Positions 35,978 through 51,050 of a stretch of 51,560 bases of DNA are shown piece after piece; the first letter of the stretch is position 1; every line of letters begins with the position of its first letter. The notes below the pieces were generated by a model. The model ran no database searches, had not been told where the DNA came from, and saw nothing but the letters and a program-made list of their open reading frames with translations. The position numbers and the translations under genes were made by a program. This DNA is from Patescibacteria group bacterium (GTDB taxonomy: Bacteria > Patescibacteriota > Patescibacteriia > Buchananbacterales > UBA6539): assembly GCA_028688055.1 (NCBI GenBank), contig JAQTYZ010000004.1, forward strand, positions 99,021 to 150,580, read 5' to 3'.

Positions 35978-36775
35978 TTATAATACTTTGACTTTTCTGT
36001 CCACCCTAACAATCGATTTGGCTTGTCGTGAATTATGGTCGATCTCAAGTAAAACGGCATTAACACTCACCTCGCCAACTTCCGGAATATCAAGTTTAAA
36101 GGTAGTCTTATCAACAAAACTTTGAATAATTGGTTCTTTGGTATCACCAATAATTGAATCAGTCGCACCGACCATACCAACATCGGAAACAAAAGCGGTG
36201 CCACTGGGCAACACCTTATGGTCCGCCGTTGGCACGTGAGTATGGGTTCCCAATACCGCGCTGACCCGGCCGTCAACATACCAACCAAACGCCGCTTTCT
36301 CCGAAGTTGCCTCGGCGTGAAAATCGACAATAATCGCGGCCAAATTTTTTGGCAATTCTTGTTTTAAGATTTCATCAATTTTCTGAAACGGTGAATCAAG
36401 TTCTTCTTTCATAAAAACTTGCCCCATCAAATTAACAATCATCACCGATTTCGAGCCAACCTCAATAATCCGAAAACCTTTACCCGGTACGGCGTCGGGA
36501 TAATTAGCCGGTCTGATCACAATCGGCTTTGGATCGACTAATAAAACCTCGGCTTCCGGTTTTGATAAAACATGATTACCGGAAGTAAAAAAATCTATAC
36601 CCGCTTCACGCAGCTCATTGATTATTTTCGAGGTAAACCCGACACCATGAGCCGAATTTTCCGCGTTGGCCAAAATCAAGTCAGGATTTAACTCCTGCTT
36701 TAGCTCGGGTAAAATTTGTTTGATGGCTTGACGGCCGATCCGACCAACAATATCACCAAAGAATAATATTTTCAT
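35978..36775 (-). CDS. ymdB: YmdB-like metallophosphoesterase
   Basis: GDIVG, NAENSAHG, TSGNH, DFHAEATSEK, GTHTHVPTAD, DVGMVG; downstream of rny. Confidence 0.93.
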   Translation of the reverse strand: MKILFFGDIVGRIGRQAIKQILPELKQELNPDLILANAENSAHGVGFTSKIINELREAGIDFFTSGNHVLSKPEAEVLLVDPKPIVIRPANYPDAVPGKGFRIIEVGSKSVMIVNLMGQVFMKEELDSPFQKIDEILKQELPKNLAAIIVDFHAEATSEKAAFGWYVDGRVSAVLGTHTHVPTADHKVLPSGTAFVSDVGMVGATDSIIGDTKEPIIQSFVDKTTFKLDIPEVGEVSVNAVLLEIDHNSRQAKSIVRVDRKVKVL

Positions 36776-36790
36776 CGTCAATAATTTAAA

Positions 36791-38317
36791 TTAACGAGCG
36801 TATTCAACCACTCTAGTTTCCCTAATAATGGTCACTTTAATTTCACCGGGGTAGCGTAACTCGGCTTCAATTTTTCTGGCAATGTCTTGGGCCATTTTCA
36901 TCGCCGCCAAATCATCAATCGCTTCCGGCACGACAAAGACTCTAATTTCTCGTCCGGCTTGCAAAGCATAGCAACGATCCACACCGTCAAAAGCCGTCGC
37001 AACTTTTTCCAAATCTTCCAGACGCTGCAAATATTGTTCATAACTGTCTTTGCGCGCTCCCGGTCGAGCGCCGGAAACGGCGTCCGCAACTTGGACAATA
37101 ATTGCTTCCAGCGTTTTTGGATTTGGATCATGATGACCGCGGGCGATATAAGCCACCTCTTCGGGTAAACCAAATTTCTTCAAAATATCATAGCCGATTT
37201 CCGGGTGCGTACCCTGGACTTCGTGATCAACGGCTTTTCCAATGTCGTGAAGCAGTCCGCCCTTTTTGGCGATACTAACGTCAGCCCCTAATTCCTGCGC
37301 CAACAAAGCCGACAAATGGGCGATTTCAATGGAGTGCTGTAAAATATTTTGGCCATAACTGGTTCGATATTTTAAGCGGCCGATAATCTGAATCAATTTT
37401 GGATCAAGCCCCGTAATGCCCAATTCATAAACGGCATTTTCGCCAGCTTCCTTAATCTCCAGCGCTAATTCGCGCTTGGCTTCGTCAATGGCTTCTTCAA
37501 TTTTAGCCGGATGAATACGGCCATCTAAAATTAATTTGCTTAAGGCTTTTTTGGCCACGTGACGGCGAATCGGCGAAAAGCCCGAGATGGTAATGGCCTG
37601 CGGGGTATCATCAACAATAATTTCGACCCCGGTCAATTTTTCAATCGTTCTAATGTTTCGTCCTTCCCGACCAATAATGCGGCCTTTCATTTCGTCTGAG
37701 GGTAAATCAATGGTGGTCGTGGTCCCTTCCGCCGCATGCGAAACTGAGCAGCGCTGAATAGCGAGGGTCAGCATTTCTTTGCCTTTTCGTTCAAGTTCCA
37801 AATTAGACTGATTAGCTAATTTTTTCATTCTTTCAACTAAGTCATCTTTAATTTCTCGCTCGGTATTATCAATCAAAACTTTTTTAGCATCTTCCTTGGT
37901 CAAATTGGCAACCTTTTCCAATTTAGCCATTTGTTCTTCTTTAATTTTGCCAATCTCCGCTTTCAACCCCTCAATTTTTTCCGCCTTATCCAATAACTCC
38001 TGTTTTTTGTTTTCCAAATCTAAAAGTTTTTGGTCAAACAAGGCTTCACGGCTTTCCAATCTTTTTTGCGATCTAATTAATTCTTGCTGCCGCTCCTTTT
38101 CTTCAAATTTGCCTTCTTCAATAATCTTGAGGGCCTTGTCGTTGGCTTCAAGCAAAATTTCTTTTTGCTTGGCCTTAGCGTCATTCAAAAGTCCTTCGAC
38201 TTTAGTCTCAATCGTATCTTTGCGCTTAACGGCCCACATTTTTCTCAGCTGATAACCAAAAGCAATCCCGCCGAGGATGGTCACAAACAGCGCGATTAAC
38301 CAATAAATTGTTGACAT
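36791..38317 (-). CDS. rny: Ribonuclease Y
   Basis: N-terminal TM, coiled coil, KH (KGRIIGREGRNIR), HD (LLHDIGK), RVVEYAR; start set at ATG 38317. Confidence 0.97.
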   Translation of the reverse strand: MSTIYWLIALFVTILGGIAFGYQLRKMWAVKRKDTIETKVEGLLNDAKAKQKEILLEANDKALKIIEEGKFEEKERQQELIRSQKRLESREALFDQKLLDLENKKQELLDKAEKIEGLKAEIGKIKEEQMAKLEKVANLTKEDAKKVLIDNTEREIKDDLVERMKKLANQSNLELERKGKEMLTLAIQRCSVSHAAEGTTTTIDLPSDEMKGRIIGREGRNIRTIEKLTGVEIIVDDTPQAITISGFSPIRRHVAKKALSKLILDGRIHPAKIEEAIDEAKRELALEIKEAGENAVYELGITGLDPKLIQIIGRLKYRTSYGQNILQHSIEIAHLSALLAQELGADVSIAKKGGLLHDIGKAVDHEVQGTHPEIGYDILKKFGLPEEVAYIARGHHDPNPKTLEAIIVQVADAVSGARPGARKDSYEQYLQRLEDLEKVATAFDGVDRCYALQAGREIRVFVVPEAIDDLAAMKMAQDIARKIEAELRYPGEIKVTIIRETRVVEYAR

Positions 38318-38336
38318 AAATTCTAGCTCCAAAAAG

Positions 38337-38566
38337 ATAGAGAGCTAAACGACGATTTTACTTTGTGGGGAGATTGCCCAGTCACCATTGACTTGAGCGA
38401 AAGACAGCTTAAAACAACAACCAACTGGTCGTTTTAGTTTAAACTGATTTTAGAGTCACGATTCATTAAAGTAATAATGCTGGAAAAGAGTTGATAAATC
38501 GATGAATTTGGACTCATTTCGGCTGTATTCCGCATCGCTAGAATCTCCTGTCGCCTAAATCTCTAT
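38337..38566 (-). ncRNA. Long rod-shaped structured RNA upstream of rny (6S RNA candidate or cis leader)
   Basis: Nested stems 38550-66/38337-53, GGAGATT/AATCTCC, GCGGAATACAGC/GCTGTCTTTCGC, GAGTC/GACTC; G-U pairs indicate the minus strand; TTGTCA-N17-TAGCCT upstream. Confidence 0.6.
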
Positions 38567-38636
38567 TTCGTTAAATAAATAATGTTACTCTGAGGCTACC
38601 ATAAATTCAGCTTTTTGACAAGGGTGGCGGTAAATG

Positions 38637-38663
38637 AAAAGAGCGGGGGATGGGACCCCGCTC
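38637..38663 (-). terminator. Terminator of the 72-aa ORF
   Basis: GAGCGGGG/CCCCGCTC plus TTTT on the minus strand. Confidence 0.8.
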
Positions 38664-38692
38664 GGGAAACAATTTAGCGCGAACTTTCGCGC

Positions 38693-49205: not shown

Positions 49206-49256
49206 ATATCTTTAGTATACCAAAAAAACTATCCACCGCAGGCCGAAGCCAAAACA

Positions 49257-49332
49257 TCAGCTTGCCGCGTCGCGTCGCTCCTCGCAATGACAAGGATGGA
49301 CAAATTGTCATTACGAGCGAAGCGAAGTAATC
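49257..49332. repeat. REP-like palindromic doublet, copy 1
   Basis: CTCGCAATGAC ... GTCATTACGAG core; 71 of 76 positions identical to 50871-50946. Confidence 0.88.
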
Positions 49333-49459
49333 CCTCAATGACAAAAAAGTAGACGATTCTTTTATTTACTATTCCTAACGTCCACTACAGACCACTGCTT
49401 ACATAAAAATTACCTTACTGAACGCCACTAGAAATTAAATTACAGTGCCTCCAGAATTA

Positions 49460-50805: not shown

Positions 50806-50870
50806 AATATTAATAGTATACCAAAAAACCGCCCCTTTAGGGTGGCTTTCATTTTAAAACCCGACAAATG

Positions 50871-50946
50871 TCAGATTGCCACGTCGCGTCGCTCCTCGCA
50901 ATGACAAGGATGGACAAAATGTCATTGCGAGCGCAGCGAAGTAATC
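50871..50946. repeat. REP-like palindromic doublet, copy 2
   Basis: GATTGC ... CTCGCAATGAC-N15-GTCATTGCGAG ... GTAATC. Confidence 0.9.
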
Positions 50947-51050
50947 TCGCAGTAACCAAAGTAAAAAAAATATTCTATTTTACTGATATATTAAATACTA
51001 AATCTGGATGACCTTAAAGATATAACATAATATACTACTGTAAATAAAGG

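Follow-up and report, generated by a model that had tools for sequence, protein, structure and literature searches.

A conserved 5′ leader of the RNase Y gene in Buchananbacteria, a candidate two-state switch of the ribosome-binding site

Introduction

In many bacteria, RNase Y is the enzyme that initiates decay for most mRNAs, and its dosage therefore matters. To our knowledge, self-control of this enzyme has been demonstrated only in Bacillus subtilis (in 2023), without a defined RNA structure there, and we know of almost nothing on gene regulation in the candidate phyla radiation. In Escherichia coli, a stem-loop in the leader of rne binds the enzyme and speeds decay, with no exchange between a closing helix (P1) and an anti-RBS strand. 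That leader (RF00040, rne5; RF01756, rne-II) is a large, conserved and structured 5′ UTR of the gene encoding the main decay-initiating endoribonuclease, where it serves feedback. The leader described here is likewise large, conserved and structured, but the enzyme is RNase Y and not RNase E, the downstream gene is rny, and neither RF00040 nor RF01756 matches it.

In B. subtilis, RNase Y cleaves its own 160-nt 5′ UTR, RNase J1 trims the RNA and the ribosome site lies within a structure; the reported preference of the enzyme is for AU-rich single strands beside structure (Korobeinikova et al., 2023; PMC10303841). The locus that we analysed resembles this UTR in its described features. A long 5′ UTR with its own promoter (the start being predicted) directly precedes rny, AU-rich segments, a 20-nt tail and an unstructured interior, lie in its 5′-proximal part beside structure, and the ribosome-binding site can be buried in secondary structure. 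The expected logic would also be alike, cleavage leading to 5′ trimming and then to loss of translation, with the cleavage shown in B. subtilis and supposed here. Unlike the leader described here, the shorter B. subtilis UTR has neither a conserved closed fold nor competition between a long-range helix and a ribosome-site hairpin in its description, and its ribosome-site structure reaches into the ORF.

Two further systems offer points of comparison. In the add adenine riboswitch, a translational ON switch, the 3′ strand of the closing helix P1 also sequesters the ribosome-binding site, and stabilisation of P1 opens the site. The same overlap of the P1 3′ strand with the anti-RBS strand was found here, but our leader is much larger, with about 220 nt enclosed, shows no evident compact, highly conserved ligand core and has no known ligand. 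6S RNA (RF00013) is similar in size and has a long closing stem, whereas the interior of our leader is multi-branched, a rod is not kept, and the element is tied, physically and structurally, to the ribosome-binding site of rny. Feedback leaders of major ribonuclease genes are thus already known; what is new here is a lineage-specific design with three unusually clear strands, namely a 5′ arm, an anti-RBS strand and the ribosome site; as these exchange, translation should go on or off. We found no description of a structured rny leader motif in the literature.

Results

Gene order, promoter and transcript

We analysed a stretch of 51,560 nucleotides, called the window below, in which an earlier note had seen a 230-nt rod-like RNA upstream of rny. 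On the minus strand, the genes run in the order clpP, a small ORF, the leader, rny and ymdB (Table 1). The RNA had been said to end about 20 nt before the rny ATG, and the distance is indeed 19 nt. A protein search returned relatives with 71–96% RNase Y identity, the nearest of which are labelled Candidatus Buchananbacteria, Patescibacteria group or Parcubacteria, and from these we retrieved 12 distinct leaders; the closest relative is L161, at 96% protein identity. The RNase Y loci recovered by scanning genomes and metagenome contigs were all distant, with no more than 69% identity. While rny and ymdB are adjacent in the window, two relatives carry a gene for a 23S-rRNA-intervening-sequence-type protein (PF05635) inserted between them (L163:2837-3199 and L174:2809-3186).

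Table 1. Positions of the rny leader, its parts and the neighbouring genes in the window
Feature	Positions	Strand	Sequence and remarks
clpP	39806-39234	-	first in order toward rny
small ORF between clpP and rny leader		-	terminator at its end, 38663-38641
promoter	38593..38621	-	-35 TTGTCA 38621-38616; -10 TAGCCT 38598-38593; 17-nt spacer ending in TGG; read in sequence
5′ tail	38567..38586	-	AACATTATTTATTTAACGAA; AU-rich, 20 nt, predicted single-stranded; TTAATTTATTAA-like conservation in alignment A1
P1 5′ arm	38550..38566	-	ATAGAGA-T-TTAGGCGAC; partner 38337-38353; proposed anti-anti-RBS strand
P2 5′ arm	38542..38548	-	GGAGATT; partner AATCTCC 38369-38375
5′ interior domain	38447..38541	-	AU-rich, weakly folded, ~95 nt; equivalents of TTCTAACTATTTA, ATATCA and AAAATTAGC in relatives
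P4 hairpin	38405..38446	-	CAGTTTAAA...TTTAAGCTG with inner ACGACCA/TGGTTGT stem
P5 hairpin	38376..38398	-	abuts P2 3′ arm; sequence varies by species
P2 3′ arm	38369..38375	-	AATCTCC; fold and covariation
A-rich linker P2-P1, 3′ side	38354..38368	-	CCACAAAGTAAAATC; unpaired in the fold; A-rich in 12/12 species
P1 3′ arm	38337..38353	-	GTCGTTTAG-C-TCTCTAT; bases 38348-38341 (TTAGCTCT) double as anti-RBS strand
ribosome-binding region	38323..38330	-	GGAGCTAG; Shine-Dalgarno GGAG 38330-38327; can pair with 38348-38341
rny	36791..38317	-	ATG at 38317; RNase Y, 508 aa; Pfam RNase_Y_N, KH and HD domains
ymdB	35978-36781	-	downstream neighbour of rny; ORF product YmdB

The rny ATG is preceded at about 270 nt by a sigma-70-type promoter (about 240–305 nt across the leaders), whose arrangement, TTGCCAAAAA-N-TaTGnTAGtCT, is common to all 13 Buchananbacteria loci at the same distance from rny. 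From this promoter, transcription is predicted to start near 38586. No intrinsic terminator was found between the promoter and rny in the window, and a search for a conserved terminator in 12 leaders gave only two isolated weak candidates. Since the conserved promoter lies upstream and no terminator precedes the gene, the RNA is very probably the 5′ leader of the rny mRNA, about 270 nt long and transcribed from its own promoter. The 20-nt tail at its 5′ end may be where RNase Y and a 5′ exonuclease enter, by analogy with the rny 5′ UTR of B. subtilis (PMC10303841).

Two other kinds of leader were considered and rejected. A transcription attenuator does not fit, as there is no conserved terminator and the CTTTTT that follows P1 is part of a hairpin at the ribosome site; this T-run is not conserved and reads, for example, CTCCCC in L170. 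A leader peptide could have been encoded by a 33-codon uORF on the minus strand (ATG 38535, behind GGAG), which is not kept in relatives: it is absent from L161, and its ATG is missing in a metagenome contig of ~91% identity. No ORF is common to the 12 leaders, and the one starting in the region 38527-38535 is probably a chance ORF.

Constraint on the leader was evaluated against L161. From the 5′ part through the interior to the 3′ part, the two leaders are 98, 75 and 79% identical, while the four-fold degenerate sites of rny are 47% identical. The leader exceeds these sites throughout and is under constraint over its whole length. Across the clade, identity of the interior falls to about 43%.

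In most Buchananbacteria relatives, a SAM-I riboswitch-like element and a small ORF are found directly upstream of the rny leader. The SAM-I-like matches lie at L164:391-497 and L180:287-409, with weaker ones in L161, L163, L165, L168, L174, L177 and L182; scores range from 28.9 to 46.9 bits, and two of ten reach the Rfam gathering score (44.4). The small ORF behind the element, of 62–125 aa, was called in seven relatives. The Rfam scan of the window gave no SAM-I match at the gathering score. These matches suggest that the clade carries a divergent SAM-I variant.

The closing helices P1 and P2

Two helices close the leader. The outer 17-bp stem (38566-38550 / 38353-38337), here P1, and the GGAGATT/AATCTCC helix (38548-38542 / 38375-38369), here P2, were found where the earlier note had drawn them; both occur, along with the 3′-side hairpins, in the centroid structure of the window stretch, and both are backed by 11 relatives. 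P1 comprises 16 pairs and one U·C mismatch, with three G·U pairs, and is followed in the window by CTTTTT. P1 and P2 are kept with compensatory changes across the 12 Buchananbacteria rny loci. In the P1a part (ATAGAGA/TCTCTAT), alignment A1 shows ACAGGGA/TCCCTGT in L170 and the replacement of a G-C by an A-U pair in L165, L180 and L182, and in P1b the sequence differs in almost every species with complementarity retained. P2 reads GGAGC/GCTCC in L180 and AGAGA/TCTCT in L182.

These impressions were quantified in several ways. When the arms of the variable part of P1 were swapped between species, cognate arms paired with a mean of -7.7 kcal/mol, compared with -4.84±0.63 for permuted partners, and the cognate mean was not attained in any of 100,000 permutations. 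On a gap-free positional alignment, from which the pair counts of P1 and P2 were taken, 74.2% of the cells of the two helices are paired, versus 67.8±1.6 in shuffled alignments (0/500 as high) and 37–47% when the arms are slid against each other. The covariation score is 0.251 versus 0.183 (reached in 2/500 shuffles), and by positional count both sides have changed in 11 pairs, three of them in P2.

For the 230-nt stretch on the minus strand, the folding energy is -60.2 kcal/mol, and none of 200 dinucleotide shuffles folded as well (z -3.36). The value for the plus strand is nearly as good (z -2.73), and folding energy alone therefore cannot set the strand. About 9.5% of the P1 and P2 cells are G·U, which supports the sense strand, and the claim that G-U pairs fix the strand holds in that these pairs, together with the promoter and the gene direction, and not the energy, set it. 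The same G·U cells would be mismatches in DNA, and they bear on a reading of the repeats as a DNA-level feature, either an operator palindrome or a small mobile element bounded by terminal inverted repeats. Such a reading could draw on the inverted 17-nt arms about 200 nt apart and on an inverted repeat of 7 nt at the ribosome site. We regard it as extremely improbable, given also that the arrangement stands at the same position across 12 species, that no second copy was found in the window or in 186 loci, where the motif occurs solely upstream of rny in the sequence searched, and that a dimeric operator is ill-fitting, as the loop length of the ribosome-site hairpin varies among species. A dispersed repeat or MITE was rejected for the same lack of a second copy in the window and the 186 loci. 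An RNase III processing stalk also seemed less likely, with P1 of only 17 bp, short for a substrate of that enzyme, and a 15-nt one-sided loop before P2.

The ribosome-site hairpin and the two states

The family consensus computed with RNAalifold consists of a single element, the hairpin TCTATCT(Y)(Y)-loop-(G)(G)AGATAGA, which takes in both the Shine-Dalgarno sequence and the nucleotides between it and the AUG. In the window, the hairpin is formed by TTAGCTCT and GGAGCTAG, and the last 39 nt fold into it by themselves, with -9.3 kcal/mol (z -2.41). Across the 12 species, 95.7% of its cells are paired, compared with 31–58% when the strands are slid. Its sequence is mostly conserved, and one pair has changed on both sides, which 49 of 500 shuffles do as well.

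The P1 3′ arm is also the 5′ strand of this hairpin, and P1 and the hairpin are therefore mutually exclusive. In the folding models, the leader is able to adopt an open state, with P1 formed and the ribosome site free, or a closed state, with the hairpin formed. The ensemble energies of the two states in full-length RNAs lie -0.2 to +6.7 kcal/mol apart, mostly in favour of P1, and the P1 state prevails in 8/12 minimum-energy folds. As P1 is favoured in most full-length folds, switching would require a trigger. Between the Shine-Dalgarno sequence and the AUG lies a conserved spacer, AGATAGAAA, with complementarity to the P1 3′ arm. A triple change in L170 links the three strands: the shared nucleotide in column 108 is changed from A to G, and its partners in column 4 (P1) and column 125 (hairpin) are both changed from U to C. 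The three-part arrangement was present in 10/12 Buchananbacteria leaders and 9/20 leaders of distant Patescibacteria, compared with 11% of shuffles, a four- to eight-fold enrichment. We consider it likely, from these models, that the leader is a two-state translational switch at the ribosome site of rny.

The preference for P1 in most minimum-energy folds and the scarce covariation of the hairpin would also be expected of a constitutive structural leader, whose closed fold protects the mRNA 5′ end or fixes the level of translation and in which the hairpin is a by-product. We consider this unlikely: the spacer is conserved in complementarity to the P1 3′ arm, it has changed along with both of its partners in L170, and the three strands occur together well above the shuffled expectation.

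The interior of the leader and comparison with 6S RNA

Within P2, the leader divides into the 5′ interior domain and the two hairpins P4 and P5. In the 5′ interior no folding signal was seen (z of 0.05 for the window and -0.26 on average over 12 species); it nevertheless contains motifs shared with relatives, and it is 75% identical to that of L161. The P4–P5 region folds well, with z -3.71 in the window and a mean z of -3.6 across the family. A hairpin at the place of P4, after a UUGAC-like motif, was seen in 11/12 species, with a different sequence in each, and in L161 P5 is replaced at the same place by GUUCCGGUCAG/CUGACCGGAAC, with pairing kept and sequence changed. Consensus folding of the interior with MAFFT and RNAalifold, on the whole leader, on blocks or on a subset, returned only the ribosome-site hairpin or nothing. 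A long-range helix P3 (AAATTYCC with GGAAAATT) can be drawn in some species with a shifting register, and we do not claim it.

This interior is not the rod with an asymmetric central bubble that had been proposed, as it forms a multi-branch region made of a floppy ~95-nt 5′ segment, P4 and P5. A 12-bp stem between GCGGAATACAGC (38533-38522) and GCTGTCTTTCGC (38408-38397), one of the elements of that rod, can pair at this place but is absent from the minimum-energy fold; it loses 4/11 pairs in L161 and overlaps the supported hairpins P4 and P5. The terminal GAGTC/GACTC pairing is present in the window but loses 2/5 pairs in L161, and ATTCAT/ATGAAT is present on the minus strand. The expectation that the stems be conserved and covary in relatives was thus borne out for P1 and P2 and failed for the 12-bp stem and GAGTC/GACTC.

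The proposed identity as an unannotated 6S RNA was examined with covariance models. The Rfam models gave no 6S match at the gathering score on the 51.5-kb window, the 6S models gave none in 38200-38800 even at E<=10, and Rfam families had no match at E<=0.1 to the leaders of 14 relatives. Judged from these sequences, the leader is a conserved RNA of ~270 nt that matches no Rfam family, and is uncatalogued and lineage-specific, belonging to one group of ultra-small bacteria. The literature offered no paper placing 6S next to rny, as the earlier note had stated for some lineages, and no description of a 6S RNA in Patescibacteria.

A broader form of this idea is a stand-alone small RNA, of the 6S or another kind, that is possibly excised from the rny transcript and acts in trans, for example on RNA polymerase. 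In the window, a closing stem and internal loops of about 6S size would suit it, and the 6S RNA of E. coli is likewise processed from a longer transcript. In its favour, too, the rny mRNA of B. subtilis co-purifies with RNA polymerase (PMC11077062). Of the 6S rod, however, only the closing stems are conserved and not the large central bubble and the terminal stem. In place of a bubble between two long stems there are two 3′-side hairpins and a floppy 5′ domain, and the 12-bp stem clashes with both hairpins. The outer stem is moreover coupled to the rny ribosome site through the P1 3′ arm. On these grounds and the absence of an Rfam match we rejected 6S RNA as the identity of the element, and we hold any stand-alone RNA to be very improbable. 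A dual role, in which cis control of the ribosome site is combined with release by cleavage of the P1/P2 core as a stable trans-acting RNA of ~200 nt (a decoy for RNase Y, or an RNA polymerase binder replacing 6S), is scarcely more probable.

The interior also bears on an ON switch of riboswitch-like or protein-responsive type, in which a small molecule or a protein other than RNase Y would bind the domain closed by P1 and P2, stabilise P1 and free the ribosome site, following the logic of the add adenine riboswitch. The sharing of a strand between P1 and the anti-RBS pairing, the closeness in energy of the two states and an enclosed domain that has conserved motifs and is under selection would all be accommodated by such a switch. 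Those motifs lie, however, in a ~95-nt 5′ interior that has neither a folding signal nor a consensus structure and whose identity of ~43% across the clade is not what a compact ligand pocket would show. In the sequence searched, the motif was encountered only upstream of rny, and the rny-ymdB operon suggests no ligand. We therefore view an effector other than RNase Y as rather unlikely.

Discussion

The reading that we favour on balance, as a whole, is an rny leader in which P1 and the ribosome-site hairpin exchange, with autoregulation triggered by RNase Y. P1 and P2 bring the beginning of the leader together with the sequence immediately before the ribosome-binding site and enclose the AU-rich segment, P4 and P5. 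With P1 formed, the ribosome site would be free and RNase Y translated; if the P1 5′ arm were lost by cutting or trimming, or kept from pairing, the hairpin would close the site. We infer this effect on translation from the shared strand. RNase Y would cut AU-rich single strands, of which the leader offers the 5′ tail, the interior just upstream of P4 and the A-rich linker, and exonuclease trimming after such a cut would remove the P1 5′ arm, resulting in negative autoregulation.

RNase Y itself appears to be the most plausible trigger, by analogy with B. subtilis, and we propose it tentatively. The other suggestion of the earlier note, a cleavage-sensing leader, accordingly stands in part: the promoter, the lack of a terminator before the gene, the covarying closing helices and the ribosome-site hairpin speak for an rny leader, and the sensing of RNase Y is a step that we only infer.

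Leaders of rny from other Patescibacteria could not be aligned with the one described here. They fold unusually well (mean z -3.1), and their end-to-end pairing lies far above that of shuffles (mean z of -3.3 in 21 leaders). In two distant Patescibacteria (L007:2960-3000 and L004:2940-2990), the end of the rny leader is a GC-rich hairpin with a T-run at the ATG, or a long perfect palindrome, and other lineages may carry terminator-like devices at the same place before rny.

Two further observations concern other parts of the window. The longest infB ORF (41177-43243) shares its first 57 nt with a tRNA (43187-43257, minus strand, 70.8 bits), and the real start of IF-2 probably lies further downstream than the start of this ORF. 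A 95-nt direct repeat, 87% identical and with copies 1.6 kb apart (49252-49346 and 50866-50960), contains an internal palindrome, GTCATTRCGAGCG, and is possibly a small repeat element.
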